The notes below the pieces were generated by a model. That model saw only the letters and a list, made by a program, of their open reading frames with translations, did no database searches and was not told the DNA's origin. 64,000 bases of DNA from Eubacteriales bacterium (GTDB lineage: Bacteria > Bacillota > Clostridia > Oscillospirales > CAG-272): NCBI GenBank assembly GCA_045613205.1, contig JAZLAO010000093.1, positions 18,274 through 82,273 on the forward strand, in the 5' to 3' direction. A program made the position numbers and the translations under genes. Below are positions 10,812-62,898 of this stretch, in pieces; within the stretch, counting starts at the first letter, position 1, and every line of letters starts with the position of its first letter.

Positions 10812-10827
10812 ACTCAATATATAGTAA

Positions 10828-10854
10828 TACATGGGGCGACGGGCGCCCGATGTA
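10828..10854 (-). other. GC-rich stem-loop between the E1 and lplA genes
   Basis: tacatggggcg / cgcccgatgta (5 + 5 bp around one mismatch, 5-nt loop), in an otherwise AT-rich spacer. Confidence 0.4.
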
Positions 10855-10864
10855 TTTTTGTTAA

Positions 10865-13351: not shown

Positions 13352-13372
13352 AATAATATCTCCTTAAATAAA

Positions 13373-14734: not shown

Positions 14735-14749
14735 TAGTGACACCTCCGA

Positions 14750-48773: not shown

Positions 48774-48802
48774 TTGACTTTCCTTCCTTAATATGCTATG
48801 AT
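48774..48802 (+). promoter_or_regulatory. Promoter of the crp-ABC operon
   Basis: TTGACT, a 17-nt spacer, then TATGAT. Confidence 0.5.
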
Positions 48803-48831
48803 TGTATCAAATGATACACTTTCGAGGGAAT

Positions 48832-49506
48832 ATGAAAAGTAATCTATATGATTTTTTATCCTGCGTTTTTCTTTTTCGGGGTATGGAAAAAGATGCACTT
48901 GCCGACGTAATAAAAAATATTACCCCGGAAATAAAAACATACTCCTGCAAGGAAGAAATATACACTCCAAACGATTACGAGCACAAGCTTTGCTTTATAG
49001 TGAATGGTGAATGCGCGGTAGAAAGGGTCAAAGGAGACGGAAATTCCGTGCCTCTGAATTTACTAAAAAAAGGCGATTCCTTTGGGATAATGACAATACT
49101 CTCTTGTGAAGACGAATTTCCCACTCGAATAGTTGCCAAACGAACCTCGGAAATACTTTTCATTTCAAAAGAAGATACCCTGAAGATTATAAATAAATAC
49201 CCGCAGATTGCGATGAACGTAATTGCCTTTCTCTCAAACAAAATTTCTTTTTTGAACAGCAAAATCGCCACTTTTTCTTCTTCCAGCGTAGAAGAAAAGC
49301 TTTCAAACTATATTTTGTCGGAACACAAGAAACAGAAATCCGACGTGCTCCCCTTCAACTGCAAAAAAAGTGCAGAAGCTATCAGCGCCGGCAGGGCTTC
49401 TCTGTACAGAGCGATAGCCGCGCTCTCTGATTTGGGAATCATAAAGCTTGAAAACAAAAAAATTTATATATTAGACCCAAAAGGTCTCGAAAGGAACTCA
49501 AAATGA
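48832..49506 (+). CDS. Crp/Fnr-family transcriptional regulator
   Basis: A cNMP-binding-like beta-roll (LFRGMEKDAL...GDSFGIMTIL) and a C-terminal HTH (SAEAISAGRASLYRAIAALSDLGII). It has no Fnr-type N-terminal Cys cluster. The ATG at 48832 lies downstream of the predicted -10. Confidence 0.8.
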   Translation: MKSNLYDFLSCVFLFRGMEKDALADVIKNITPEIKTYSCKEEIYTPNDYEHKLCFIVNGECAVERVKGDGNSVPLNLLKKGDSFGIMTILSCEDEFPTRIVAKRTSEILFISKEDTLKIINKYPQIAMNVIAFLSNKISFLNSKIATFSSSSVEEKLSNYILSEHKKQKSDVLPFNCKKSAEAISAGRASLYRAIAALSDLGIIKLENKKIYILDPKGLERNSK

Positions 49507-50492
49507 AAAAACTTTTAGCAACAATCCTGATTCTCTCCCTTTCACTTTTCCTCTTCGCAGGATGCGGTGATACCCCCGACCCCGACAACACGCAATTAAG
49601 AGTCGGTTTTTTATCCGGTCCAACCGGCATCGGAATGGCAAAGCTGATTAACGACAACGGCGGACTTGAAGGAAATGAAAAATATTCCTTCCGCTCATAT
49701 GCAGCAGAAAAACAGCCTACAACAATAGCGAAGGGCGAGCTGCTTACAGGCAAGGTCGACGTTATCTGTCTTCCAACCAACGAAGCGGCAGCATATTACA
49801 ACTCAGAAGATGACAGGTGTGTTGTACTTTCGATAAACACACTTAATACGCTTTTCTTCATAAGCGACGAAAACAACACTATCAATTCCCTTTCCGATCT
49901 TAACGGAAAAACAATCTACACCTGTGAAAACGGAACTCCCAAAACCGTACTCAAGCATCTTCTTGAAAAAGCAAAAATCGATGCTACAATTTCAACAAAA
50001 GACGGAAGCATCGGCTCACCCGACGACCTCAAGCAGCAAATAATCGCAGGCGCAGTTCCAATCGCCTTTGCTCCCGAGCCCATTGTTTCAGCTTCGGCAT
50101 TTGCAAGAAGCAATTCTAACAAAACACCCTACTCGGTTGACCTTTCTTGCGATGAGCTTTGGGAGGCTAACTGTGACAGCACTCTTGCAATGGGATGCAT
50201 AGTTGCAAGCAAGACATTTGTCGAAAGCCACCCCACTGTAATCGATGCTTTTCTCGAGGAATACAAAGCTTCTATCGAGTATATTTCCAATGCGCAAAAT
50301 GTTGATTCTGCCGCAGAATATGTCAAGAATGCAGGAATTCTTCCGAATTTAAACGTTGCAAAATCCGCATTGGCAAATCTCGGAAATTCAATCACATACA
50401 TTGACGGAGCCGATATGAAGACTATGCTCGAAGCCTTCTACAAGGAGATTGGAATAACAGCTCCGGACGACTTCTTCTATTATGAAAAATAA
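49503..50492 (+). CDS. ABC-transporter substrate-binding lipoprotein (NitT/TauT / NMT1-like family)
   Basis: A signal peptide with a lipobox (LFLFAGC). LRVGFLSGPTGIGMAKL is typical of this SBP class. An ATGA overlap couples it to crp. Confidence 0.75.
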   Translation: MKKLLATILILSLSLFLFAGCGDTPDPDNTQLRVGFLSGPTGIGMAKLINDNGGLEGNEKYSFRSYAAEKQPTTIAKGELLTGKVDVICLPTNEAAAYYNSEDDRCVVLSINTLNTLFFISDENNTINSLSDLNGKTIYTCENGTPKTVLKHLLEKAKIDATISTKDGSIGSPDDLKQQIIAGAVPIAFAPEPIVSASAFARSNSNKTPYSVDLSCDELWEANCDSTLAMGCIVASKTFVESHPTVIDAFLEEYKASIEYISNAQNVDSAAEYVKNAGILPNLNVAKSALANLGNSITYIDGADMKTMLEAFYKEIGITAPDDFFYYEK

Positions 50493-51225
50493 GCTCAAAT
50501 CGGCTTTAAAAATAATAATCCCCATTGCTTTTTGGCTTGCCGTTTGGGAAGTATGCGCCTTAATTTTAGACTTTCAATATTTTCTTCCTGACATTATTGC
50601 AACGCTTAAGGCTATGGGAAAAATAATCATATCTCCCGAAACCTACAGCATACTTTTCAAAACCTTCTCAAGAGTTATAATTTCAATCATTATCAGCGCA
50701 ATATTCGCTGTTATTCTTGCTGTTTTTTCGCACAAATACGAGCCTGTAAGAATAATGTTTTCACCCCTTCTGGCAGTGATGAAATCTGTGCCGGTCGCTA
50801 TATTTTCGGTGCTTTTCTACGTATTCATACGCGGTGAGGTTATTCCAGTTTTAATCGCTTTCTTTATGATTATGCCTATGATATGGCAAAACCTTCTTGA
50901 CGGCTACAACTCAATAGACAAAAATCTATATGAGGTCTGTCAGGCATATGAATTTTCACCCAAAAAGCGTCTTAAGGTTTTAATTTTTCCCGCGCTTATA
51001 AAGTATTTTATTCCTGCTTTAATTACCTCTGTGGGATTTGCATGGAAGGCTGTAATTTCCTCTGAAATCCTGGTCAGAACCGTGGATTCCGTAGGACTTA
51101 TGATATCGGATTCTAAATATCAGATGGATACGGCAACATCATTTGCGTGGACCTTTATCGCAGTTATTTTAAGCATTGCTCTTGAAAAAATTGTAAAACA
51201 ACTGCTTGGGAGATGTAAGATATGA
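50482..51225 (+). CDS. ABC-transporter permease (NitT/TauT family)
   Basis: Six TM helices and an EAA-like loop (EVCQAYEFSPKKRLKVLIFPAL). Confidence 0.8.
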   Translation: MKNKLKSALKIIIPIAFWLAVWEVCALILDFQYFLPDIIATLKAMGKIIISPETYSILFKTFSRVIISIIISAIFAVILAVFSHKYEPVRIMFSPLLAVMKSVPVAIFSVLFYVFIRGEVIPVLIAFFMIMPMIWQNLLDGYNSIDKNLYEVCQAYEFSPKKRLKVLIFPALIKYFIPALITSVGFAWKAVISSEILVRTVDSVGLMISDSKYQMDTATSFAWTFIAVILSIALEKIVKQLLGRCKI

Positions 51226-51806
51226 GCTTGACACTTTCAAACATTAGTAAAAAATTCGGTGATAAAATAATATTTGAGAATTTTTCTTATGAATTTTCAG
51301 ATACAGGAATCTATGCACTTATCGGTGACAGCGGTACAGGAAAAACTACCCTGCTGCGAATGATATCCGGACTTGATACATCATACAGCGGAAGCATTAT
51401 TGGCGGTGGAATACAAAACACAGCCTTTGCTTTTCAGGAATACCGTCTTTTTCCGCATCTCACAGCTCTGGAAAACGTAGTTGTTGCCAACGGAGCTCTT
51501 GACGATTCTGCGCTTTTAGAAAAGAGTAAAGAGTTTTTAATGAAGCTTGGATTTACAGATTCGGATTTATCTCTTTTCCCCTCGGAATTATCCGGCGGAA
51601 TGAAGCAGCGCGTTTCACTCGTTCGTTCATTTATAAGAAACACACCGATTTTGCTTCTTGACGAGCCGACAAAAGAGCTTGATGAAAGTCTCAAAAAAAT
51701 TCTCTACAAGTTTATTTTAGATGAGGGAAAAAAGCGTCTGGTAATACTCGTTTCACACCACAATGAAGATTTAGAAAATTTAAATGCAATAAAAATAAAC
51801 ATATGA
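51222..51806 (+). CDS. ABC-transporter ATP-binding protein (short, 194 aa)
   Basis: Walker A (GDSGTGKTT), Q-loop (FQEYRLFP), signature (LSGGMKQR), Walker B (LLLDEP) and H-loop (VSHH). Confidence 0.88.
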   Translation: MSLTLSNISKKFGDKIIFENFSYEFSDTGIYALIGDSGTGKTTLLRMISGLDTSYSGSIIGGGIQNTAFAFQEYRLFPHLTALENVVVANGALDDSALLEKSKEFLMKLGFTDSDLSLFPSELSGGMKQRVSLVRSFIRNTPILLLDEPTKELDESLKKILYKFILDEGKKRLVILVSHHNEDLENLNAIKINI

Positions 51807-51812
51807 ATTTAA

Positions 51813-51840
51813 GGCGGAGCTCTGCGGCTCCGCCTTCTTT
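51813..51840 (+). terminator. Terminator of the ABC operon
   Basis: ggcggagc / gctccgcc stem with a 6-nt loop, followed by TTCTTT. Confidence 0.65.
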
Positions 51841-51861: not shown

Positions 51862-51890
51862 TTGACTTTTTTGGGATTTGGTGGTATAGT
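51862..51890 (+). promoter_or_regulatory. Promoter of the decarboxylase operon
   Basis: TTGACT (51862-51867), a 17-nt spacer, then an extended -10, TGgTATAGT (51882-51890). Confidence 0.55.
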
Positions 51891-51976
51891 ATATTTGGTG
51901 AAAATTGGGCTAAATAAGATTTTGCTGTCAATTTTACCGAAAATAGTTATTAATATGGAAGGAGAGATTTGCCAAA

Positions 51977-53434
51977 ATGGCAAATCGGGAATTCGGTTTG
52001 AACAAATACACAAAAACTGAAATCTGTGGACTTCCGACAGTCAAGGAACTTCGCGCTTCCCTTCTTGCAGGTGAAAATTCCACCGCAAGAGAGCGTCTTG
52101 CTCTTCTCTTCGACAAAAACACCTTTGTTGAGACAAGTGCATACGCAAAGCGTAGTTTTTCCGACTTTTTGTCCACGGAAAGTGCAAATGAATTTGAGGG
52201 CGTTATTTGCGGATACGGTGCAATAGACGGCAAACTCATATTCGCATTTGCAGAGGATTCTTCAAGAATGGGTGGCGTTATTGACGAGCGTCACGCAAAG
52301 AAAATTGCCGACACGTACAAGCTCGCAATGGAAAACGGCGCTCCCATCATCGCTATTTTCGATTCTAACGGCACTGACATTTTCGAAGGCACGGTCGGCC
52401 TCGCAGCCTACGCAAAAATCATGGCTTGCGTTTCGAAGGCTTCGGGTGTTATTCCTCAGATTGCTTTCGTTTCCGGAAAATGTATCGGAACTGCAGCCGC
52501 TATTGCTTCGATGTTTGACTTCGTAGTTAAGAGCTCTGAAGCTGAGTTCTACGTTTCCTCACCCAACCTTACCGGTGCAGAAAACGCGCAGGACACTACC
52601 CTTGCATACACTGCTTCTGCAGACCAGTGCGCGGCATACATAAGAAGCCTCGTTTCCTATATCCCAAATAACGCTTCAGAGGGCGTTATTGTTAACGAGT
52701 GCACAGATAACCTCAACAAGATGCTTGGTGAACTTGATTTTGCAGGCGATTCCCTCGCTGCAATTTCGGTAATTGCAGATAACAGCATATTCTACGAGGT
52801 TGCTCACGATTTTGAGCCGGGTGTTGCTACAGCATTTGCCACTGTCGGAGGCGTAAAATGCGGTATCGTTGCAAACGCATTTTCTCAAAACGACGGAAAA
52901 ATCTCGGTTTCTGTTGCAAGAAAGATTTCGAAATTTGTTAATTTCTGCGATGCTTTCTCTATTCCCGTAGTTACTCTTGTTGATTCACTCGGTCTTGCCG
53001 TTGAAAAAGACAATGAGCGTTCATACTTCGCTTCTGAGCTTGCAAAGCTTGCATTTGCTTATTCGACCGCTTCGGTTCCCAAAATAACAGTCATTCTCGG
53101 TCACGCAATAGGCGCTGCCTTCGTTCTTCTTGGCTCAAAGGCACTCGGTGCAGACCTCGTTTACGCAACTGACAATTCCGAAATCGGCGCTCTTTCTGCT
53201 GAAAGCGGTGTTGCATTTGCGTGGGATAAATATATCACTCTTGAAAAAACTCGCGAGGAGCTTATAGGTGAATGGAAGGCTTCGGTTTCCTCTCCTGCTG
53301 TAGCTGCAGCCAGCGGTGAAATCGATGACATTATAAGCGTGAATGAATTGAGAGCGAGAATCTGCTCTGCACTTCTGATGCTTGCAACTAAGAACACCTC
53401 CATTGTTGCTCGTCGCAAAGTGCTTCCTCTCTAA
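51977..53434 (+). CDS. Acyl-CoA carboxyltransferase, 12S/MmdA/PccB family, divergent
   Basis: A two-lobed crotonase-type carboxyltransferase layout (MGGVIDERHAKKI...APIIAIFDSNGTDIFEG...IPQIAFVSGKCIGTAAA; second lobe GGVKCGIVAN...FCDAFSIPVVTLVDSLG...VPKITVILGHAIGAAF). Confidence 0.8.
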   Translation: MANREFGLNKYTKTEICGLPTVKELRASLLAGENSTARERLALLFDKNTFVETSAYAKRSFSDFLSTESANEFEGVICGYGAIDGKLIFAFAEDSSRMGGVIDERHAKKIADTYKLAMENGAPIIAIFDSNGTDIFEGTVGLAAYAKIMACVSKASGVIPQIAFVSGKCIGTAAAIASMFDFVVKSSEAEFYVSSPNLTGAENAQDTTLAYTASADQCAAYIRSLVSYIPNNASEGVIVNECTDNLNKMLGELDFAGDSLAAISVIADNSIFYEVAHDFEPGVATAFATVGGVKCGIVANAFSQNDGKISVSVARKISKFVNFCDAFSIPVVTLVDSLGLAVEKDNERSYFASELAKLAFAYSTASVPKITVILGHAIGAAFVLLGSKALGADLVYATDNSEIGALSAESGVAFAWDKYITLEKTREELIGEWKASVSSPAVAAASGEIDDIISVNELRARICSALLMLATKNTSIVARRKVLPL

Positions 53435-53450
53435 TTATCGGAGGGTTAAT

Positions 53451-53798
53451 ATGAATAACTTTATTCTCTCTATATCTGCAGACCAGTATGCCGAAAAGCT
53501 TAATTTTTCCGAAGCTCTTGGCTTTGGCGGTCAGATGATTCTTCTCGGTATGGGGGCTGTTTTTGCAGTTCTTGGAATAATCTGGGCAATTCTTACCGTT
53601 TTTAAAATGGTATTTACAAACACAAACAAAAAAGAAAAGCCCGTCAAAGTCAAAGAAGAAAGCGTTGTTTCTGCTCCCGCGCCCGTTTATACTGCCGACA
53701 CGGAAATTGTTGCAGTTATTGCGGCAGCTATCGCAATGGCTGAAGCAGAAAGCGGAAGCAACCTGAAGTTCAGAGTTGTATCTTTTAAAAGAAAATAA
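53451..53798 (+). CDS. OadG/MmdD-like small membrane subunit of Na+-translocating decarboxylase
   Basis: 115 aa with a single N-terminal TM helix (GGQMILLGMGAVFAVLGIIWAILTVF) and an Ala-rich tail (EIVAVIAAAIAMAEA). The ATG at 53451 is 5 nt after GGAGGG. Confidence 0.65.
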   Translation: MNNFILSISADQYAEKLNFSEALGFGGQMILLGMGAVFAVLGIIWAILTVFKMVFTNTNKKEKPVKVKEESVVSAPAPVYTADTEIVAVIAAAIAMAEAESGSNLKFRVVSFKRK

Positions 53799-53831
53799 TT
53801 CACTATACGATAATACGAAAGGATTTACAAA

Positions 53832-54227
53832 ATGAAAAAGTATAATATAACTGTTAATGGCACGACCTACGAGGTTGTTGTAGAGGAAGCCGGTGAAGTC
53901 GCACAGGCACCCGTTGTTTCCGCGCCTATCGTTTCTGCTCCCGCAGTTTCTGCCGCTCCTGCCGCTCCCGCGGCCGCTCCTAAGGCAGCTCCCGCAGCAA
54001 GCGGTGCACAGGGCGCAAACAAGGTTACAGCTCCAATGCCCGGAACTATTCTTGACGTTAAGGTTTCTGTTGGTCAGAGCGTAAAGAAGGGCGACGTTAT
54101 CTGTGTTCTTGAGGCTATGAAAATGGAGAATGACATTCCTGCGCCCTGCGACGGTGTCGTTGCTTCTGTTAGCGTTCAGAAGGGCGCTTCGGTCAACGCA
54201 AACGACGTAATTGCTACACTTAACTAA
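53832..54227 (+). CDS. Biotin carboxyl carrier protein (1.3S/MmdC-like)
   Basis: An Ala/Pro linker and a biotinyl domain with EAMKMEN. Confidence 0.85.
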
Positions 54228-54253
54228 TTTATTTTGCGGCAGAGGTAATATAA

Positions 54254-55483
54254 ATGTTAGATGCTGTCAAAAACTTTTTAGGCTCAACCGGCATTAGTAA
54301 ATTATTTGCCGAGAGCAATTGGTGGCAATACATAGTTATGTACGTCATCGTTGGCGTTCTCTTCTATCTTGCTATTGTCAAAAAATTTGAGCCGCTGCTT
54401 TTAATGCCTATTGCATTCGGTATGCTGCTTGCCAACCTCCCCGGTGCAAATCTTATGCACCTCGATTTCTTCTTCGACGATTACTATATTGAACAATATG
54501 GAGCTCAGTTGCTCGTAGATGGGCACGTACCGATGTCACGAATCATTGAAGAAGTAATCAACAAAGGCGGTCTGCTTGATATTCTATACCTTGGCGTTAA
54601 GCTCGGTGTTTATCCCTCGCTTATATTCCTTGGCGTTGGTGCTATGACCGACTTCTCTCCCCTTATTTCCAATCCAAAGTCACTCTTTATGGGAGCGGGC
54701 GCACAGCTCGGTGTTTTCGTAGCCTTCTTTGGAGCGCTTCTGCTTGGATTCACTCCTATGGAAGCCGGCTCTATAGGAATTATCGGCGGCGCCGACGGCC
54801 CTACGGCAATACTTGTTACGAAAACTCTTGCACCCCATCTTCTCGGTGCGATAGCAATAGCCGCATACTCGTATATGGCACTTATTCCTATCATTCAGCC
54901 TCCTTTTATGAAGCTCTTGACTACCGAAAAGGAACGTTCGATAAAGATGACTAACCTTCGTTCCGTTTCCAAGGTTGAAAAGGTTATATTCCCTATCGTC
55001 GTTACACTTATAGTTACTCTTATCGTTCCTGACGCGGCTCCTCTCGTAGGATTTTTGATGCTTGGAAACCTCTTTAACGTTTCCGGCGTTTCCGACAGAC
55101 TTTCAAAAACCGCGCAAAACGAGCTCATCAATATAGTTACTATTTTCCTCGGAGTTTCGGTCGGTGCTACAGCAAATGCCGAGAACTTCCTTAAGCTTGA
55201 AACAATTTACATAATCCTTCTTGGACTTTGCGCATTCATAATTTCTACTTGCGGCGGACTCATTACCGGTAAGATCATGTGTAAGCTTTCAGGAGGAAAA
55301 ATAAATCCGCTTATCGGTTCGGCAGGTGTTTCTGCCGTTCCCATGGCAGCAAGAGTTGCCCAGGACGTAGGACGCAAGACTGACCCCTCAAACTTCCTGC
55401 TTATGCACGCTATGGGCCCCAACGTCGCAGGCGTTATCGGTTCAGCTGTTGCCGCAGGCGTATTCCTCAGTTTCTTCGGCTAA
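54254..55483 (+). CDS. Na+-translocating decarboxylase beta subunit (OadB/MmdB/GcdB family)
   Basis: 409 aa and polytopic, with conserved stretches GIIGGADGPTA, LIGSAGVSAVPMAARV and LLMHAMGPNVAGVIGSA. Confidence 0.9.
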   Translation: MLDAVKNFLGSTGISKLFAESNWWQYIVMYVIVGVLFYLAIVKKFEPLLLMPIAFGMLLANLPGANLMHLDFFFDDYYIEQYGAQLLVDGHVPMSRIIEEVINKGGLLDILYLGVKLGVYPSLIFLGVGAMTDFSPLISNPKSLFMGAGAQLGVFVAFFGALLLGFTPMEAGSIGIIGGADGPTAILVTKTLAPHLLGAIAIAAYSYMALIPIIQPPFMKLLTTEKERSIKMTNLRSVSKVEKVIFPIVVTLIVTLIVPDAAPLVGFLMLGNLFNVSGVSDRLSKTAQNELINIVTIFLGVSVGATANAENFLKLETIYIILLGLCAFIISTCGGLITGKIMCKLSGGKINPLIGSAGVSAVPMAARVAQDVGRKTDPSNFLLMHAMGPNVAGVIGSAVAAGVFLSFFG

Positions 55484-55504
55484 TATATTGAAAGGAAAAA
55501 CAAA

Positions 55505-56905
55505 ATGTCAAAAGTTTTAATAACAGAAACAGTCCTCCGTGATGCGCATCAATCTCTCGCGGCAACCCGTATGACTACCGAGGAGATGATTCCGATTCTC
55601 GAGGATATGGATAAAGTAGGTTACTATTCCCTTGAGGCTTGGGGCGGTGCTACGTTTGATACCTGCCTCAGATTCCTTCACGAAGACCCTTGGACGAGAC
55701 TTCGTACCATTAGAGACCACGTTAAGAACACAAAGCTTCAGATGCTCTTCCGCGGTCAGAACATTCTTGGCTACCGTCATTATGCCGACGACGTGGTCGA
55801 ATACTTCGTTCAGAAATCAATCGCAAACGGTATTGATATAATCCGTATATTCGACGCTCTTAACGACGCAAGAAACCTTGAAACAGCTATAAAGGCAACA
55901 ATCAAGGAAGGCGGTCACGTTCAAGCCGCTATATCCTATACAACATCCCCATTCCATACCAACGACAGCTTTGCAGATTACGCAAAAAGACTCGAGGATA
56001 TGGGTGCTAACTCAATCTGTATCAAGGATATGTCGGGCCTTCTTAAGCCATTTGATGCATTCCAGCTCGTTAAATCACTTAAGAAAACGGTTAAAATTCC
56101 GATTCACCTTCATACCCACTATACCGCAGGTCTTGGCTCAATGACTCTTCTTAAAGCTATTGAGGCTAACGTCGACGGTGTTGATACGGCTATATCTCCT
56201 CTTGCAATGGGAACTTCGCACACACCTACAGAATCGCTTGTTGCTACTCTTAGCAACACTCCTTACGACACCGGACTTGAGCTTGAGAAGCTCGACGTTG
56301 TTGCTAAGCATTTCAACAAAATCCGCGAAAAATACCTGGCAGACGGTCTTATCGACCCCAAGGTTCTTAAGGTTGACGTAAACACTCTTCGTTATCAGGT
56401 TCCGGGCGGTATGCTCTCAAACCTTATCTCGCAGCTTAAGATGGCAGGAAAATCCGACAAGCTTGACGAGGTTCTTGAAGAGGTTGCAAGAGTTCGTGAG
56501 GACGCAGGATATCCCCCGCTTGTTACTCCTACCTCGCAGATAGTCGGCACGCAGGCGGTTAACAACGTAATCTTCGCTGATGAAGGCAGATATGCAAGAG
56601 TTACCAAGGAATTCAAGGGACTTGTCCGCGGTGATTACGGAAAATGCCCTGCTCCCGTTTCTGAAAACTTCAGAAAAATGATTATCGGTGATGACGACGT
56701 TATAGATTACAGACCCGCTGATAAAATTGCTCCCGAAATTGATGCACTCCGTCAGAGAGTTGCGCCCTATCAGGAACAGGATGAGGACCTTCTTTCTCTT
56801 GCCCTTTTCGAGCAGGTTGCAATCAAATATTTCGACTGGAGAAAACAGCAGAAGTACAACCTTGATAATAACGCTGACGTTGCCAACGGTATACACTGTA
56901 TTTAA
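55505..56905 (+). CDS. Oxaloacetate decarboxylase alpha / transcarboxylase 5S-type carboxyltransferase, without a biotinyl domain
   Basis: A TIM-barrel carboxyltransferase (ITETVLRDAHQSL...CIKDMSGLL...HLHTHYTAG) plus the conserved carboxylase C-terminal region. There is no xMKM biotinylation motif anywhere in its 466 aa. Confidence 0.85.
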   Translation: MSKVLITETVLRDAHQSLAATRMTTEEMIPILEDMDKVGYYSLEAWGGATFDTCLRFLHEDPWTRLRTIRDHVKNTKLQMLFRGQNILGYRHYADDVVEYFVQKSIANGIDIIRIFDALNDARNLETAIKATIKEGGHVQAAISYTTSPFHTNDSFADYAKRLEDMGANSICIKDMSGLLKPFDAFQLVKSLKKTVKIPIHLHTHYTAGLGSMTLLKAIEANVDGVDTAISPLAMGTSHTPTESLVATLSNTPYDTGLELEKLDVVAKHFNKIREKYLADGLIDPKVLKVDVNTLRYQVPGGMLSNLISQLKMAGKSDKLDEVLEEVARVREDAGYPPLVTPTSQIVGTQAVNNVIFADEGRYARVTKEFKGLVRGDYGKCPAPVSENFRKMIIGDDDVIDYRPADKIAPEIDALRQRVAPYQEQDEDLLSLALFEQVAIKYFDWRKQQKYNLDNNADVANGIHCI

Positions 56906-56944
56906 TTCTACGTCGCATTTATGCGAAAGTTAATAATAACAACA

Positions 56945-57020
56945 GGCAGAGGTGCAAAAAGCTCCTCTGCCTAAAAGTATCTTATATGAGAAAACCAAGG
57001 TTAAAGCCTTCGGTTTTCTC
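56945..57020 (+). terminator. Two tandem hairpins terminating the decarboxylase operon
   Basis: ggcagagg / cctctgcc (56945-56971), and gagaaaaccaagg / ccttcggttttctc (56988-57020) followed by ATTTTC. Confidence 0.6.
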
Positions 57021-57100
57021 ATTTTCTATTGCTTAAAATCATCCGATTAATCAAGCTGATAACGAAGACTTCCGGTGAAGCCTTCGTTATACAAAAATAA

Positions 57101-57127
57101 TTGGCGAAGAGATTTCCTCTTCGCCAA
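57101..57127 (-). terminator. Terminator of the secreted-protein operon
   Basis: ttggcgaagag / ctcttcgccaa, an 11-bp stem with a 5-nt loop, followed on the minus strand by TTATTTTTG. Confidence 0.7.
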
Positions 57128-57138
57128 TATCTTTTTAA

Positions 57139-60100
57139 TTATGCATTTTGGTTTTTAGCGTTTACAGACAGAACGTAGAGTGCTTTTGCAAAGCCGCTGT
57201 CTGTTTCCTTGATATAATTTGCAAGGCTATACATTCCTGCAGCAGTACCGATTTCGATTTTGATTTCATCTGCAAGGTTAGCAAGCTCTATTCCGCTCAA
57301 GGTATATTCAACATACTCACCGTTTGCCATACCCGTAACAGCCACACCGTTAATCTTAACCGTTGCCGCCTCGCTTAAGAAAATCGAGAACGCGTACTTG
57401 ACGTTATTCTCATCGTCCGTAACGAGAGTAAAGGAATACTTTGCAACAAGAGATTTGATGTTCGTATCATCGGAGACATTCTCTGAAGGCGTATAGTTTA
57501 CTTCACCGCAAGTGCAATCGGTTTTATGGAATATCTTGTATTTCTGCCATTCAGTATCAACCTCTTCCTTGAGATCATCACTGGGAGTTGATGCTAAAAA
57601 TGCAGTATGCTTATACTCCATCATTGCATATACGAGTTTGCTCTCGGCAGAACCACAGCCATAGGTAGAATCAATTCTGTAAGCGTAATTGAATATGTCA
57701 ATTCTTACGTCTGCTTCAAGCTCCTGTCCGTCAACAGTATACTTAACGGTAATCGTCTTAGCCGCAAATTCATCGGTTGCAAAAAGACCTATAAGACGAT
57801 TCCAGCCTTCAACACCGTCAAGAGTAACGCCAGAATATACGTTGTTTGTAATCTTGCCGTTTGCATCGAAGAAGCCGACAAATGACATCACGTAGTTTTC
57901 AACGGAAGGCGTGGGAACGTAAATATTGTAAGCCAAATCGTTGTATATAGATATGCCAACCTTTACAGTATTCAAATCAGCAACATACTTGGGTTCGGGC
58001 TTAAATTTGTTTTCCTTATCGGCATAAACCGTGAAGTTTTCCTTGTTTGTTTCGCCCGCGGTTACGTTCATCCATTTTTCATAGGTGATATCGAACCAGT
58101 TGTTATTGAGGTCTACTTTCTCAAAATCATTAAGTGATTCACGAAGCTCTGCCACAATTTCACTGCCGGCAACCCAGTAGGTAGTCTTGTAAAGCGAGCC
58201 GTCGGGATTAAGCCAGCTCACAGGCTTTATGCATTCTTCGATTTTATCGCCTGTAAAGGTGATAAGAGTAGCTTCAAAATCTGTGGTAATAGAAGCAAAT
58301 CCAGGAACCGATATTGCAACATCCTTGATTAGGTATTTTTCATTGTTTGAGAACGCCATGAGCGTTCCACTATCACAGCCGATTTCGGAATTAAGCTTTG
58401 CATTGAATTTGTTTGCCGCGCCGAGAGTTACGTTATACTTGTTCTCAAATCCGAGCACCACACTCTCTTTAATATAAATCTTCGACGCAGTATTCCATTC
58501 TTTTATGAATGTGCCGACGGTGTAGCCATCATCTGTGATTTTTCCGGCAAACATATTTGATTTCTCAACATTTACGTCGGCTGAAGATACGTACGGTGCG
58601 ATTAGCGAGAAGATAGCTTCACCGTTCGCGGTTACTATATCAGCGTTTTTGATATTGAATTTCATATCAACGTCGGATATCGGGAAGAGCGCTCCGTTAG
58701 AAGCCACAGTGCCGTAATAATTACCGCCGTTGAGATTTACTTCTATAGCCTTGGGTGCCTCAGGTTTCATTTCAGTACCCATAAGATATACTATTGAAGA
58801 GCCATACAAAGTAAGGTTATCGCCAGACTTATCGTTATCGGTTATTTTGCTTAGATTGATTTTAACGTTATTAACATTGTTTGCGGAAATGATTGCACGT
58901 CCCGCACCCGTCTGATATACTTCTGCACCTGCTTTATCGGAATAAAGATTAAGGGTTATTCCGCTGTTAACAGCGAATATCGAAGAGTCAGAATTTGCTG
59001 CCTGACTAATCTTATATCCGTTAAGGTTAAAATTAACAGTAGCATTCTTGGGTATACGGAGGGTTTGTTCTGCTGTAAGGTCGGAATAAAGGGTGATACT
59101 GTAGTTTTTGCCCTTTTCCATATTCGCCATTGCACCAGCTATAGTAGAAATTTTTTCAAATTTCTCGAAATCATAATCGGGAGCATAAAGCTTAGCTTCT
59201 TCGCCATCGCTAAAGATAGCATATGCAACAGGCTTTTCTTCAAACTGCGCGATTAGCTGAATTTCCTTTATTCCCTTTTCGATAAATTGCTCGTTAATCT
59301 CAGATCTTGTGAACGTTTTTTCGAAATCCTCACCGAAGATTTCGTTTGCAGGCTTATCGCCCTCATCAATTTTACCGTTTCCGTTAACGTCCCAATGCCA
59401 ATCCTTGAAAAGTCCTATAGTGGGAGCACCGGACTCGGTTGTTTTAAATCCGCTTGTTATTTTCAAATTATTTGCAAGAGGCTGCATTGGCAAAAGCTTC
59501 TGTTCTTTTCCGGACTCTGCATTTCCGTAGGCTCCTTCGAACAGCCACCTGACAGTTACGTCATTTTCTCCGCCATAACAAACGGTATATATATCAACGG
59601 TTAGCGTTTCGGTTTCATCACCGATTTGCTCTCCCTTTTCATCAAGCTTCGGTATTATAAGCTTTCGCTGCGTATGCTGAAGCTTAAAATGTTCTTCCGC
59701 TTCAGAAGATAAGGAAACCCTAGAGCCGTTCACAGAAGTGAAAGTGATAACCCTCATTTCATCAGGATTGGGGTTGAAATTCTCAACGTCATACTCTATT
59801 TCGACGAAGTCACTGTTACGAACGCCCTTGTGCACAGAATTCTTAGTGTAGCAGTTAGTTTTGTTTCCGTCAGCGTGTGTTATCGTTGCTCGCAGAGGAA
59901 CGCCTGGAGTGTAGTAATCATCGTTATAAACTACGTTCTTACATTTCATTATGGCAAGACTCTCTTTATACTCATCAGAGGACATAAACTCGCCCAGTCC
60001 GCCGGCAATCTCAGCGTCATCCTCGCTATAGTAGTTAAGCGCTACGTTATCAAATGCGAGGGAGTATTTATCGTACATCTTATCTGCGATATTGCCTTCA

Positions 60101-61095
60101 GCCACCTTTTTGTGGAATGCAAGTGTCATCTGGTAGAATACGTTGCAGTTTTTAACAGAACCTGTCATTTCCCAGTTAGGCAACTGCAACATATACTCTC
60201 CGTTGATATAGGCGTGAGGCTGTACCGTAAGTCCACCGTCAAGAACCTTGAAAACCATGGTTACGTGGTCAAACTTAGCAACTTCATTTTTAAGCTTATA
60301 GGTAACTGTTTCACCTGCGCTTGATGTTCCCTGCAGATACCAGCCGTCATCCTTTTTAACAACAGAAAATGCGGTTTTGCTTACGGTTTGCCAGTTAGTA
60401 CTTGCGCTATTCTGCACAAGCGTTGCATTAGGTGTCTGAGATTTTGAAGACAAAAACACAAATTGGAAGTTAAGAGGAGTCTTCGTGTCAGGGTATGCAA
60501 GCTGTTTCGAATCTATTGCTTCTTTAGCGCACTCCTCTGCTTTCGCTTTATCAGAGGTCAAGGTGTTTATATACGCTTTAAACTCTTCGTCGCTTGCTGC
60601 GGTTTTGTAACCGGTTTCACCGTCGAGGGTATAGGTATATGCCCATCTGTCAGCGCTGAAATCAAAATCCAAGGTGAGATATGCATGTTCTTTCAAATCA
60701 TATGCGGAATTGTAGGTGGTATGCGCTCTCCATCTTACTGTAGATTCGCGGAACGGATTTGCCGGATTGGAATCCAAAGCTCCGGAAGTATAATGTATAC
60801 GTATGTAGGTATTATCGCGTCCCGATTCCTGAACGTGCGAAGCCGAAATATGTGCGGACTTTACAGAGTTTTCTGTACCGAAACGTTGTTTGTCACCCGT
60901 GGAAGAAATGAGATATTCTTTTTCACTTACACCGGTAGTACAGTCATCTGTTACGTTGTAGGAGTGACCCGTAACGTCGAGTTGGTTTGCCCCTACTGCT
61001 GACGCTTCCTCTGCAGAAGCAAGAATTGCCGTGCTAATACCGAAGAGCATGCACGCCGCCAGAAGAAACGTTAAAATTTTAGTGGATTTCTTCAT
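57139..61095 (-). CDS. Very large secreted protein (about 1318 aa from the ATG at 61095), uncharacterised, with a beta-helix-like central region
   Basis: A signal peptide (MKKSTKILTFLLAACMLFGISTAILASAEEASA) preceded by GAGGAGA. I recognised no LPXTG, SLH, dockerin pair or lipobox. It is paralogous to the upstream gene. Confidence 0.75.
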   Translation of the reverse strand: MKKSTKILTFLLAACMLFGISTAILASAEEASAVGANQLDVTGHSYNVTDDCTTGVSEKEYLISSTGDKQRFGTENSVKSAHISASHVQESGRDNTYIRIHYTSGALDSNPANPFRESTVRWRAHTTYNSAYDLKEHAYLTLDFDFSADRWAYTYTLDGETGYKTAASDEEFKAYINTLTSDKAKAEECAKEAIDSKQLAYPDTKTPLNFQFVFLSSKSQTPNATLVQNSASTNWQTVSKTAFSVVKKDDGWYLQGTSSAGETVTYKLKNEVAKFDHVTMVFKVLDGGLTVQPHAYINGEYMLQLPNWEMTGSVKNCNVFYQMTLAFHKKVAEGNIADKMYDKYSLAFDNVALNYYSEDDAEIAGGLGEFMSSDEYKESLAIMKCKNVVYNDDYYTPGVPLRATITHADGNKTNCYTKNSVHKGVRNSDFVEIEYDVENFNPNPDEMRVITFTSVNGSRVSLSSEAEEHFKLQHTQRKLIIPKLDEKGEQIGDETETLTVDIYTVCYGGENDVTVRWLFEGAYGNAESGKEQKLLPMQPLANNLKITSGFKTTESGAPTIGLFKDWHWDVNGNGKIDEGDKPANEIFGEDFEKTFTRSEINEQFIEKGIKEIQLIAQFEEKPVAYAIFSDGEEAKLYAPDYDFEKFEKISTIAGAMANMEKGKNYSITLYSDLTAEQTLRIPKNATVNFNLNGYKISQAANSDSSIFAVNSGITLNLYSDKAGAEVYQTGAGRAIISANNVNNVKINLSKITDNDKSGDNLTLYGSSIVYLMGTEMKPEAPKAIEVNLNGGNYYGTVASNGALFPISDVDMKFNIKNADIVTANGEAIFSLIAPYVSSADVNVEKSNMFAGKITDDGYTVGTFIKEWNTASKIYIKESVVLGFENKYNVTLGAANKFNAKLNSEIGCDSGTLMAFSNNEKYLIKDVAISVPGFASITTDFEATLITFTGDKIEECIKPVSWLNPDGSLYKTTYWVAGSEIVAELRESLNDFEKVDLNNNWFDITYEKWMNVTAGETNKENFTVYADKENKFKPEPKYVADLNTVKVGISIYNDLAYNIYVPTPSVENYVMSFVGFFDANGKITNNVYSGVTLDGVEGWNRLIGLFATDEFAAKTITVKYTVDGQELEADVRIDIFNYAYRIDSTYGCGSAESKLVYAMMEYKHTAFLASTPSDDLKEEVDTEWQKYKIFHKTDCTCGEVNYTPSENVSDDTNIKSLVAKYSFTLVTDDENNVKYAFSIFLSEAATVKINGVAVTGMANGEYVEYTLSGIELANLADEIKIEIGTAAGMYSLANYIKETDSGFAKALYVLSVNAKNQNA

Positions 61096-61158
61096 AATTT
61101 TCTCCTCATGAATTGCATCGTGTTTTAACAGTTTGATGCTCATATATGCTTAATTTAA

Positions 61159-62898
61159 TTAACGGATTATAAGAATTCCGTAGCCGTCAACGGTTCCGTT
61201 GTCCTTAAATGAGTTTTTAACAATATTTGTTACACCTGCAGAAACTGCTGTGTCGGTCGTGCCGGTAAGCTGATTTGAGGAAGAATTCCAGATAGCGCTT
61301 GCTCCCTGTGCGGCAGAGCCTTCGGGAAGAGTCGCCTTGCCGTCTACGATTTCGTAGTACACAACGTCGCTGTCCCAGGTTGCCTTCTCTGCTTCAAAAG
61401 TTGCAATATCTTTATAATTTTCGTATCCGCCATCAGAATCTTCGATAGGAGTGAACACGCCGTTCTTCTCATATCCCGCGATATAAGCGTAATCGGAGAA
61501 ATCGATAAACTCTACGGCGCCATCCTCTGCAGTAGCGGAGGCGATAAGAATTCCGTCAAACTCTTCTCTGATAAGCGCCGCCTCGGAATCCGAGAGTCCG
61601 CGAATAGCTTCGGGGTCATAAAGGTTGATAGCTTCGGGAACGTCACCGTCAACGTCAATGCTCCAGTTTGCGACAGTGCCGGTGTAAAGCTTCAAACCGT
61701 TCAAATCAAAATACGTGAAGGTAACGTCATTTTCGGGTGCAAGAAGGAATATAAATTCCGCAGAGCTTATTACGAGCTCCTTATCACCATACTCAACCAC
61801 ACGCTTGAGCATGAGCTTGTCATTCTCCGTAGATTTTCTAACGGTATAAGTAGTTTCTCCGTTTTTGATGATGAAGAATTCTTTCGCATCGTCTTCACAA
61901 ATGGAAAACTCGGTTTCTTCGGGATTATAAGTCAAAGTAAACTTTTCTACTCCGTCGGGAATATCGAAATCGACAACGTCAACCTTAGTTTCTATTTCCG
62001 CGCCATCGTTAATGGAAGAGAGAGCTGTTTCAGCAGCATCGGGAATATAAAACTTCTTTCCGTCTACCGCAATGACATAATCGCTATTAGGGAGAACGTA
62101 GTATGCGTTGTAAATAACCGCATCGCTCGTGGAATCATAAAGATTTTTGCTTGTATCTTCTACAATATCAGCAAGAGCCTTGGTTCCCGAGTAGTCACCG
62201 GTCTTGTATCCCTTTCCAATGTAGCTATACGAAGCGCCATACACTTTCTTGAATGCATCACTTTCATCCTTTTCATTCCAGTCGGTTGATTTCGTCAACT
62301 GGTTACCCTGTACTGAGAAACGCGACAGCGATACTTCCTGGCTGGTAAGCTCACAATTCTCTGTATCAACGTAATTTCCGTTAACGTAAAGCATCAAGTC
62401 GATACCCGTAATAGCGCCTTCGTTTCTAACCACCTTGTATACAACGGTGATGTGGTCATAAACACCGGATTCACAAGAAATTCTCGCCGCTTCGGACACG
62501 GAACTGGCATTGTTTGCAAATCCTAAGTAATAAAATCCGTCGTTGTGCTTATAAAAATAAATATAAGAAAGCAAAGAACTGTTGCCTCCGTCCTTTATAG
62601 CTCTCTGGGGGCTAATCTTAAAAGCCTGAGGATACGACTCATAACCCTCAGGCAACGTGAGGTCCATATCAACGGTAAAGTAATCAAAGGTTCTAATATC
62701 CCAATCCGCAGTGTACGTGTTTTGACCAAACGGCACCTTGTTGGAATTATTGGTGTGCTTTGTAAGGTTGCTCTTAACTCCGTCCACTACACCGGTATCA
62801 GGCGACTCGGCGTCAGCCGACGCAAGGAATGCAGTCGTTGCTCCGAAAAGCAAGCAAACAGACATTAAAACTGCTAGAATTTTAGAGAATTTACTCAT
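61159..62898 (-). CDS. Secreted protein (579 aa), a shorter paralogue of the downstream giant
   Basis: A signal peptide (MSKFSKILAVLMSVCLLFGATTAFLASADAESP). The RBS is AGGGAG. It shares blocks with the 1318-aa protein; see findings. Confidence 0.75.
   Translation of the reverse strand: MSKFSKILAVLMSVCLLFGATTAFLASADAESPDTGVVDGVKSNLTKHTNNSNKVPFGQNTYTADWDIRTFDYFTVDMDLTLPEGYESYPQAFKISPQRAIKDGGNSSLLSYIYFYKHNDGFYYLGFANNASSVSEAARISCESGVYDHITVVYKVVRNEGAITGIDLMLYVNGNYVDTENCELTSQEVSLSRFSVQGNQLTKSTDWNEKDESDAFKKVYGASYSYIGKGYKTGDYSGTKALADIVEDTSKNLYDSTSDAVIYNAYYVLPNSDYVIAVDGKKFYIPDAAETALSSINDGAEIETKVDVVDFDIPDGVEKFTLTYNPEETEFSICEDDAKEFFIIKNGETTYTVRKSTENDKLMLKRVVEYGDKELVISSAEFIFLLAPENDVTFTYFDLNGLKLYTGTVANWSIDVDGDVPEAINLYDPEAIRGLSDSEAALIREEFDGILIASATAEDGAVEFIDFSDYAYIAGYEKNGVFTPIEDSDGGYENYKDIATFEAEKATWDSDVVYYEIVDGKATLPEGSAAQGASAIWNSSSNQLTGTTDTAVSAGVTNIVKNSFKDNGTVDGYGILIIR

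Follow-up and report, generated by a model that had tools for sequence, protein, structure and literature searches.

A clostridial operon encoding two carboxyltransferase-type proteins, a single biotin carrier and a predicted Na+-pump subunit

Described biotin-dependent decarboxylases and transcarboxylases

Three Na+-pumping biotin decarboxylases, Oad, Mmd and Gcd, have been studied biochemically, and each contains, as far as we could find, one carboxyltransferase; three studied subfamilies are named in the paper on Gcd (PMC7145394). The statement in the original prediction that only one carboxyltransferase accompanies the pump in known systems is supported by the searchable papers (PMC7145394, PMC9403272), and according to a survey of gut genomes, no genome studied contains both alternatives, Mmd and transcarboxylase (PMC9403272). 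The Mmd pump (MmdABCDE in Veillonella and Propionigenium, MmdABCD in Bacteroidia) is composed of a carboxyltransferase, a transmembrane (TM) anchor (delta), a biotin carrier (BCCP, gamma) and a beta pump subunit, and its genes follow in one operon the order carboxyltransferase (CT)-anchor-BCCP-beta that is also seen at the locus described here; it differs in having a canonical alpha subunit, in the absence of a 5S subunit and in the epimerase or mutase genes that usually adjoin it, as they do at 10 loci in our data.

The transcarboxylase of Propionibacterium (12S + 5S + 1.3S) resembles the locus in its two carboxyltransferases and one small biotin carrier. Its 12S subunit is the top structural match of our CT and its 5S subunit is matched at E = 1e-132, but it is a soluble enzyme with neither pump nor TM anchor, and its 12S is canonical and methylmalonyl-CoA-specific. 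A soluble Firmicutes transcarboxylase with separate subunits is already known: the propionyl-CoA:oxaloacetate transcarboxylase of Pelotomaculum thermopropionicum, encoded by mmcH (alpha), mmcI (epsilon), mmcJ (gamma/BCCP) and mmcL (5S), resembles our locus in that CT and BCCP are separate proteins and the 5S subunit carries no biotin domain. The mmcI epsilon subunit matches a peptide of 56-60 aa encoded in three soluble-type clusters of our collection (L112, L114 and L133), which carries the C-terminal motif of the anchor (G) protein described below but, in contrast to that protein, no TM anchor. The mmc genes as listed include no OadB and are part of a larger cluster that also contains mutase, epimerase and TCA-branch genes.

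Oxaloacetate decarboxylases of the Firmicutes type, of which OadA-OadB-OadD-OadH of Enterococcus faecalis is an example, likewise combine an OadA without a biotin domain, a separate biotin carrier and an OadB pump, and our 5S protein passes the cut-off of the corresponding family model, NF008985. They contain OadH instead of an OadG-like anchor, are linked to citrate fermentation genes and, to our knowledge, include no acyl-CoA carboxyltransferase.

Clusters with the layout CT, small ORF, BCCP and OadA-like protein, which we liken to ours by description, occur in Clostridium thermocellum (Clo1313_1523-1526) and C. bescii; they differ in that no OadB is listed, and their function is a model assumption in one case and an expression correlation in the other. 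The former was proposed as a source of malonyl-CoA in an organism reportedly lacking a standard acetyl-CoA carboxylase (ACC) (PMC5414155), and the latter increased in parallel with the fab genes in strains that have FapR/Cra mutations, a rise tabulated by its authors under FapR/Cra regulatory effects (PMC7071700). A similar cluster in strain BL-4 was proposed to be a methylmalonyl-CoA transcarboxylase, yet no mutase was found (PMC7764203). Our literature search found no paper describing or testing the combination CT-G-BCCP-OadB-5S.

Operon layout and gene products

The stretch of DNA that we analysed (the window) is 64 kb long and contains the following features.

51862-57128, + strand: five-gene operon, one transcription unit, order CT-G-BCCP-OadB-5S
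51862-51890, + strand: promoter-like site TTGACT-17-TATAGT with a TG-extended -10 (consensus scan, 10/12 matches)
51957-51986, + strand: invariant Shine-Dalgarno GGAAGGAGAG, then a conserved leader hairpin (comparison of relatives)
51966-51973 and 51979-51986, + strand: arms of the 8-bp leader hairpin (covariation, RNAalifold)
51998-53434 (longest ORF from 51977), + strand: divergent 12S-like acyl-CoA carboxyltransferase, CT (PF01039)
53451-53798, + strand: OadG/MmdD-like anchor, G (PF04277, 61.5 bits against 27)
53832-54227, + strand: BCCP with the motif EAMKMEN (PF00364, 79 bits)
54254-55483, + strand: predicted OadB/MmdB-type carboxybiotin decarboxylase/Na+ pump (PF03977, 523 bits)
55505-56905, + strand: predicted 5S/OadA-type oxaloacetate:biotin carboxyltransferase (HMGL-like and PYC_OADA)
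56944-57128, strand not assigned: terminator region with four stable hairpins (folding z = -10.6; terminator scan)

This layout agrees with the original prediction of one promoter, gaps of 16-33 nt, tandem terminators and five products: all five ORFs are found on the + strand with their families matched by profile models, and the intergenic gaps measure, in gene order, 16, 33, 26 and 21 nt. The promoter-like site, kept in approximately 60 related loci, lies 3' of the terminator (51811-51836) that ends the upstream ABC-transporter genes, and direct repeats of ATTTGGTG stand on both sides of its -10 element. In the leader hairpin, 98.4% of cells across relatives are paired and four pairs have changed on both sides; its score was reached by 0 of 500 shuffles, and RNAalifold gives the same helix. 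The terminator hairpins (56944-56972, 56986-57022, 57057-57093 and 57100-57128) all lie 3' of the last gene, the last of them being bidirectional and common to the operon and a convergent gene of 1334 aa.

The anchor, carrier, pump and 5S assignments also held on closer analysis. Hydropathy and motif analysis of the G protein, whose gene has GGAGGG 5 nt upstream of its ATG, gave one N-terminal TM helix (peak 19-residue hydropathy 2.6), a linker and a conserved C-terminal EIVAVIAAAIAMAEAES..KFRVVSFKRK, and its score against TIGR01195 was borderline (35.8 against 36.05). The BCCP has an Ala/Pro-rich linker and the sole biotin domain of the operon, and its nearest NCBIfam model is MmdC (117 bits). 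OadB scored 487 bits against TIGR01109 (cut-off, 190.6) and keeps all of D203, Y229, N373, G377, S382 and R389 in the numbering of Salmonella OadB (6iva). The 5S protein (466 aa) passes NF008985, "oxaloacetate decarboxylase subunit alpha," at 732.6 bits (cut-off, 718), matches Vibrio cholerae OadA (2nx9) at E = 4.9e-148 and has the metal ligands D13, K174, H203 and H205, equivalent to V. cholerae D17, K178, H207 and H209. It is the most conserved subunit, with 83-94% identity and a dN/dS of approximately 0.05, a rough value since dS is saturated. A domain profile search of this protein gave no Biotin_lipoyl match and no association domain. An OadA of the Klebsiella/Vibrio type was considered for it and rejected: it lacks the fused association and biotinyl domains, and its score against TIGR01108 (667.6 bits) is under the cut-off (756.5) and covers only model positions 1-443 of 582.

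The carboxyltransferase clade and the distribution of oadB

The CT gene had been predicted to begin at ATG 51977, and the ORF is indeed open from there. TTG 51998 is the likelier start on comparison of relatives, because ATG 51977 sits in the loop of the leader hairpin and is missing from relatives, whereas the TTG is invariant among them and gives a protein of 478 aa, in keeping with the 477-478 aa of most homologues. The two-domain product matches PF01039 (Carboxyl_trans) at 254 bits over residues 34-480, its AlphaFold model (pLDDT 70) finds 12S (1on3) as top fold match with TM 0.77, and it is approximately 30% identical to 12S, PccB and MmdA-like structures. The 12S-like fold of the predicted "12S/MmdA-type" protein is therefore upheld, but the label itself is too specific: the score against TIGR01117 (mmdA) is 292 bits, far under the cut-off of 998.8, and motif alignment found none of the canonical GGARIQEG, CAGGA and YGGAY, so that we rejected a canonical MmdA/12S identity.

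The changes fall in what would be the active site, in motifs that almost all active carboxyltransferases share. DSNGTDIFEG stands where the canonical sequence is DSGGARIQEG, and the oxyanion holes G182-G183 and G419-A420 (ScPccB numbering) are replaced by G171-T172 and A380-A381. The altered motif positions also differ among members of the clade, in which hardly any variation is seen at G171, the leading glycine of oxyanion hole 1, or at G379, and positions 380 and 381 are always occupied by small residues. V383 aligns with the specificity position D422 of ScPccB and is hydrophobic like I420 of ScAcCCB, an enzyme that accepts acetyl-CoA. Motif loss is no proof of inactivity, since human MCC beta has Ala-Gly in each of its oxyanion holes, and the dN/dS of approximately 0.12 (rough, for the same reason as above) indicates purifying selection. 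The CT is presumably an active enzyme, although the motif changes may have altered or abolished catalysis.

By sequence comparison, the CT falls in a large and as yet unnamed clade with divergent motifs and many 50%-identity clusters, made up of proteins of 440-500 aa that are 36-47% identical to it and seen only in uncultured Clostridia; all carrier genomes are MAGs or metagenome contigs. Canonical Mmd and soluble transcarboxylase loci retain the CT motifs (the CTs of L112, L114 and L133, whose clusters have only the short peptide in place of G, fall outside the clade), whereas the CTs in our gene order do not.

Far from being confined to the window, the cluster is common among uncultured Clostridia and is conserved in over 70 genomes related to this one. 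The co-occurrence of 12S- and 5S-type genes with oadB, a survey suggested along with the original prediction, was determined for 80 loci that were long enough to judge and whose CT was at least 36% identical to ours. Sixty-nine (approximately 86%), with CTs 36-100% identical to that of the window, retain oadB in the order CT-G-BCCP-OadB-5S; 11 run from CT to 5S with no OadB at the locus, and none of the 80 has OadB without 5S. CT, BCCP and 5S were thus inherited together in 80 of 80. The loci without oadB occupy separate places in the tree, a pattern that calls for six or more independent losses; their CT, G, BCCP and 5S genes are intact and adjacent, and both the TM helix and the C-terminal motif are retained in their G proteins. 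Canonical MmdA-type CTs, unlike those of the clade, do occur with the pump alone. In a sister clade, the operon has a Na+/H+ antiporter gene as its neighbour.

Genes for methylmalonyl-CoA epimerase, mutase or MeaB flank 10 canonical CT (Mmd) loci and none of 87 5S-carrying loci, for which flanks of up to 10 kb were searched; the 64-kb window contains none of them. Neither fab nor FapR genes were seen next to the operon, and no pathway producing methylmalonyl-CoA or glutaconyl-CoA was found near it. Since the operon is not accompanied by genes of the methylmalonyl-CoA pathway, methylmalonyl-CoA is not the obvious substrate.

Proposed function and alternatives

We suggest, with a probability of about one half, that the operon encodes a membrane-tethered transcarboxylase core (CT, BCCP and 5S) to which a Na+ pump is added as an optional outlet for carboxybiotin. 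The five proteins would form one physical complex, a biotin-dependent multienzyme around the single BCCP, in which the 5S/OadA-type subunit would transfer the carboxyl group of oxaloacetate, the probable donor, to biotin and release pyruvate; the carboxybiotin could then either be decarboxylated by OadB with export of Na+ or pass its carboxyl group, by way of the divergent CT, to a short acyl-CoA. Our guess for the acceptor is acetyl-CoA, which would be converted to malonyl-CoA without ATP, propionyl-CoA and methylmalonyl-CoA being other candidates. The hydrophobic V383 and the clusters described for C. thermocellum and C. bescii speak for the proposal, and the lack of neighbouring fab or FapR genes and the canonical motifs of the CTs in L112, L114 and L133 speak against it. 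The G protein would act as the tether, its TM helix lying in the membrane near OadB and its C-terminal peptide, the motif that stands alone as the epsilon subunit of soluble Firmicutes transcarboxylases, docking the soluble subunits. The evolutionary core would therefore be the transcarboxylase, with the pump as an optional module. The loss of oadB from loci that keep CT, BCCP and 5S points to a function independent of the pump; if oadB is present nowhere else in those genomes, the remaining genes can be understood only as those of a transcarboxylase, and both carboxyltransferases would share the BCCP. Of the two readings offered originally, that of a transcarboxylase that can also pump is hence favoured by the co-inheritance of CT and 5S and by the repeated loss of oadB, while its assembly, its activity and the direction of carboxyl flux are what we infer. 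An extension that we put forward tentatively is that the operon represents a fourth kind of biotin-dependent Na+-decarboxylase, a three-site carboxybiotin hub that divides the carboxyl groups of oxaloacetate between energy-conserving Na+ export and ATP-free conversion of acetyl-CoA to malonyl-CoA, the latter in place of acetyl-CoA carboxylase in a large group of uncultured gut Clostridia; the divergent clade would then be the enzyme adapted to the malonyl-CoA role.

The other original reading was a dual-substrate Na+-translocating decarboxylase, in which both carboxyltransferases load one BCCP, from oxaloacetate and from malonyl-, methylmalonyl- or another carboxy-acyl-CoA, and OadB decarboxylates all the carboxybiotin formed to pump Na+, net transcarboxylation being incidental. 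The presence of an intact pump and of components for each of the two half-reactions, the retention of oadB in 69 of the 80 loci and the antiporter gene of the sister clade are in its favour, but it appears unlikely in view of the repeated oadB losses, a CT clade that never accompanies the pump alone as canonical MmdA-type CTs do, and the lack of a nearby pathway supplying methylmalonyl- or glutaconyl-CoA. Decidedly unlikely, in our estimation, is a methylmalonyl-CoA:pyruvate transcarboxylase that works between succinate and propionate in either direction, as in Propionibacterium or Pelotomaculum, with OadB as an overflow valve: the best fold match to 12S, the mmcH/I/J/L-like subunit layout and the proposal made for BL-4 (PMC7764203) speak for it, and against it stand the epimerase, mutase and MeaB genes, which are found beside 10 canonical loci, beside none of the 87 with 5S and nowhere in the window, the CT's mmdA score and missing motifs, and the lack of a mutase even in BL-4.

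The loss or variability of hallmark motifs across the clade, together with the title of structure 1on3, in which 12S is called the hexameric core of the classical enzyme, and the passing of the OadA equivalog model by 5S, would also accord with a CT that is a noncatalytic, 12S-derived scaffold holding 5S and BCCP at the membrane in a Firmicutes-type oxaloacetate decarboxylase Na+ pump. We consider this very unlikely, as oadB-less operons with an intact CT, BCCP and 5S would achieve no overall conversion with an inactive CT, and the near-invariance of G171 and G379, the small residues at 380-381, the precedent of human MCC beta and the low dN/dS all argue against it. The least likely of the explanations weighed here is that a Na+ gradient generated elsewhere drives OadB backwards, so that biotin is carboxylated from CO2 and the two carboxyltransferases form oxaloacetate and malonyl-CoA without ATP. 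The three-site architecture permits backward flow, and the Oad and Mmd pumps are said to have been found reversible in vitro by Dimroth and Hilpert in 1984; the operon, however, carries no sign of direction, a large sodium-motive force would be needed, and oadB-less variants could not operate in this manner.

If the tethered transcarboxylase with an optional pump outlet is correct, competition of two carboxyltransferases and a pump for one carboxybiotin would constitute a new form of energy-conservation wiring, one that would let the cell either preserve the carboxyl bond through transcarboxylation or convert it into a sodium gradient. Should the product be malonyl-CoA, fatty-acid precursors would be formed at no cost in ATP by many abundant Clostridia of the gut and rumen, which would be relevant to metabolic models of uncultured organisms and to malonyl-CoA engineering. 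Annotation pipelines miss the system because relatives of the CT are labelled "hypothetical protein" by NCBI.

Organization and distribution of the hybrid operon

The hybrid operon is real, conserved, and widespread. ORF calls and profile searches bore out the five same-strand genes at 51977-56905 and the families assigned to them in the original prediction, in the order CT-G-BCCP-OadB-5S, where CT is a divergent 12S-like acyl-CoA carboxyltransferase, G is an OadG-like anchor, BCCP is the biotin carrier, and 5S is an OadA-type oxaloacetate carboxyltransferase.

Profile matches of the products of the five-gene operon
CT: PF01039 Carboxyl_trans, 254 bits
G: PF04277 OAD_gamma
BCCP: Biotin_lipoyl carrier, motif EAMKMEN
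OadB: PF03977 OAD_beta, 523 bits; TIGR01109, 487 bits versus a cut-off of 190.6
5S: 466 aa; HMGL-like and PYC_OADA; NF008985, 732.6 versus 718

A domain search agreed with the expectation that 5S has no biotinyl domain, and the protein scores above the equivalog cut-off of the NF008985 model ("oxaloacetate decarboxylase subunit alpha"). The intergenic gaps, put at 16 to 33 nt, are 16, 33, 26, and 21 nt; the single promoter that had been claimed is represented by a TG-extended promoter-like site at 51862-51890, 3' of the terminator of the upstream ABC transporter genes, and four very stable hairpins downstream of 5S (z = -10.6) account for the tandem terminators.

A genome scan in which each species was represented by a single genome gave 80 loci, virtually all of them from uncultured Eubacteriales/Clostridia MAGs of ruminant and human guts, and the order CT-G-BCCP-OadB-5S was kept in nearly all that were sufficiently long. 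Neither a cultured carrier nor an experimental model organism carrying CT turned up among these 80 genome matches or the best matches of two protein searches, all of which are MAGs, are unnamed, or are annotated as "hypothetical protein"; JGI annotates some as "acetyl-CoA carboxylase carboxyltransferase component," and a look-up of the exact window CT in the contig index gave no record. When 1.8 billion cluster representatives were searched, the window CT fell into a broad clade of proteins of 440 to 500 aa with 36 to 47% identity, all of them unnamed or listed as "hypothetical protein." When metagenomes were scanned with the diversity of this clade as seed, the five genes recurred in the same order at CT identities as low as 36%, and the source pipelines call the same genes in a sister clade (CT ~45% identical).

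Gene content of all loci long enough to judge, binned by CT identity to the window
CT identity; CT..OadB..5S; CT..5S without OadB; OadB without 5S
At least 60%; 57; 8; 0
36-59%; 12; 3; 0
Below 36%; 2; 5; 5

The co-occurrence survey proposed with the original prediction therefore yields 69 loci with CT, 5S, and oadB at CT identities of at least 36%. Below 36%, there appear canonical operons of the methylmalonyl-CoA decarboxylase (Mmd) Na+-pump type (CT-BCCP-OadB, without 5S), soluble transcarboxylase-type clusters (CT-small ORF-BCCP-5S), and a few hybrids in another gene order; all of these loci carry canonical CT motifs, with the exception of one hybrid, L128, and the loci that share the gene order of the window have CTs with relaxed motifs. 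Hybrid clusters ordered CT-5S-BCCP-OadB (L115:1502-6418, L116, and L134) have canonical CT motifs, and because they differ in this way and in gene order, two carboxyltransferases may have been combined with a pump on more than one occasion.

According to a gut-genome survey, no genome studied contained both the Mmd and the transcarboxylase alternative (PMC9403272), and full-text searches gave no description of an operon with CT, 5S, and OadB. The individual components all come from known families, and both parent systems are known as well; as far as can be told, what is new is the combination of CT, 5S, and OadB, together with the divergent CT clade dedicated to it and the optional status of the pump.

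Repeated loss of the pump gene

The loci without oadB (CT-G-BCCP-5S) are scattered over a tree of CT and 5S sequences, occupying six separate positions in the close clade, with L084 placed deeper; the ancestral state therefore included the pump, and oadB was lost repeatedly. After each loss, CT, G, BCCP, and 5S are intact and directly adjacent. If oadB is absent from the rest of the genome, the net reaction in such loci requires a transcarboxylase, since carboxybiotin from one carboxyltransferase must be used at the other, and these loci are the strongest indirect indication that the two carboxyltransferases probably serve one BCCP and that CT is likely to be active. The original prediction had left a choice between a dual-substrate Na+-translocating decarboxylase and a membrane-associated transcarboxylase able to pump; repeated loss of oadB with retention of CT, BCCP, and 5S favors the latter, and we suggest that the operon is best read as a transcarboxylase tethered to the membrane, for which the Na+ pump is an optional outlet.

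The anchor G comprises an N-terminal transmembrane helix and a strongly conserved C-terminal peptide (EIVAVIAAAIAMAE..KFRVVSFKR), and both are retained in the loci lacking oadB. In three soluble-type clusters (L112, L114, and L133), the ORF between CT and BCCP is 56 to 60 aa long and represents the C-terminal peptide alone; it corresponds to the "epsilon" subunit, mmcI, of the Pelotomaculum transcarboxylase, the genes of which are mmcH (alpha), mmcI (epsilon), mmcJ (gamma), and mmcL (5S). The peptide may thus serve as a docking element for the soluble subunits, to which the transmembrane helix would add attachment to the membrane and OadB.

Catalytic residues and candidate substrates

Residues D203, Y229, N373, G377, S382, and R389 of Salmonella OadB (6iva) are all kept in the aligned window OadB. 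The 5S protein aligns with Vibrio cholerae OadA (E = 4.9e-148) and with Propionibacterium 5S (E = 1e-132), and its four metal ligands, D13, K174, H203, and H205, match D17, K178, H207, and H209 of V. cholerae OadA. The best structural match of CT, in a predicted model of moderate confidence, is the 12S subunit (TM 0.77), indicating that CT has the right fold for a carboxyltransferase; identity to 12S, PccB, and archaeal MmdA-like structures is ~30%, and the score on the mmdA model is 292 bits versus a cut-off of 998.8. The oxyanion holes formed in ScPccB, the numbering reference, by G182-G183 and G419-A420 are G171-T172 and A380-A381 in CT, and DSNGTDIFEG replaces the near-universal motif DSGGARIQEG. 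These changes are no proof of inactivity, because both holes are Ala-Gly in human MCC beta. Purifying selection acts on all five genes, with dN/dS values of 0.12 (CT), 0.11 (BCCP), 0.08 (OadB), 0.05 (5S), and 0.23 (G), at saturated dS.

Two routes to the CT substrate were set aside. A GcdA-type (glutaconyl-CoA) identity is unlikely, given that no GcdA structure was present among 44 PDB sequence matches. The ScPccB specificity position D422, which is V383 in CT, was rejected as a substrate marker, as 12S has Leu and Thermotoga has Ile there; according to the literature, this position is a partial determinant only.

Methylmalonyl-CoA epimerase adjoins CT in 10 canonical loci, with mutase and MeaB nearby in several, and none of the three was present in the available flanks (up to 10 kb) of the 87 loci with 5S; no acc, fab, mutase, or epimerase genes lie within the 64-kb window. 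The surroundings of the close-clade operon offer no metabolic clues, the conserved neighbors being housekeeping genes (a XerC-like recombinase, an amidase, FtsH, RadA, TilS, EF-G, DnaB, and an XRE-type regulator), and no pathway genes recur in the flanks of 17 distant hybrid or transcarboxylase-type loci. An analogous four-gene cluster in C. thermocellum, in which the standard acetyl-CoA carboxylase is reportedly absent, has been taken as the source of malonyl-CoA (PMC5414155), and a matching cluster in C. bescii rose with the fab genes in FapR/Cra-mutant strains (PMC7071700); for a similar cluster in strain BL-4, the proposed function was that of a methylmalonyl-CoA transcarboxylase, even though a mutase was not found there (PMC7764203). 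Taken together, these observations lead us to favor oxaloacetate as the putative carboxyl donor and to infer that acetyl-CoA is the likeliest acceptor.

Leader elements and neighboring genes

51876-51915: direct repeat ATTTGGTG, present on both sides of the -10 box (ATTTGGTGGTATAGTATATTTGGTGAAAATTGGG)
51957-52000: invariant Shine-Dalgarno sequence GGAAGGAGAG, conserved 8-bp hairpin, and CT start
56417-56896, minus strand: antisense ORF of 159 aa within the 5S gene
48802-51806: Crp/Fnr-family regulator and SsuA/NMT1-like ABC transporter
57139-62898, minus strand: ORFs of 1334 aa (signal-like N terminus) and 579 aa, between the operon and ftsH
9837-16081, minus strand: 2-oxoacid dehydrogenase complex
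37848-39416: SpoVB

Translation of CT probably begins at TTG 51998, since this codon is invariant in 62 loci, the ATG at 51977 lies in the loop of the leader hairpin and is missing from relatives, and homologues are mostly 477 to 478 aa long. The hairpin has compensatory changes across related loci (98.4% of cells paired; both sides changed in 4 pairs), and its score was reached by none of 500 shuffles; folding would leave ~11 nt between the Shine-Dalgarno sequence and the start codon, and the hairpin may therefore control translation or act as a spacer. The direct repeat is nearly invariant in ~60 related loci and could be an operator, or the second of its copies could contribute to a stem in the leader RNA; we know of no regulator site that resembles it. 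An Rfam scan of the operon and leader gave no meaningful match, and no FapR-like or Rex-like palindromes were seen on inspection of the promoter by eye. The antisense frame, also open in 42 related loci, is most likely no gene of its own but a by-product of the strong conservation of the 5S coding sequence.

An XRE-type HTH protein of ~280 aa is encoded directly upstream of CT, on the same strand, in 38 related loci (e.g., L028:7816-8658); in the window, its place is taken by the Crp/Fnr-family regulator and the ABC transporter, the permease and ATPase genes of which are also found in 17 other related loci. The 1334-aa and 579-aa ORFs, which have no Pfam or NCBIfam match, look like a lineage-specific insertion, because they do not recur in related loci and the FtsH gene is nearer to the operon in 44 of these. 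In L161, a sister-clade locus, a divergent Na_H_antiporter gene (PF03553; L161:5089-6867) lies upstream of the five-gene operon, a position that fits with sodium cycling. The remaining window genes concern glycogen, sugar phosphates, 2-oxoacid dehydrogenase, and housekeeping. The E1 alpha and beta parts of the dehydrogenase complex are fused in a protein of 828 aa, with E3, E2, and lipoate-protein ligase encoded alongside; such a complex is unusual for a spore-forming anaerobe.
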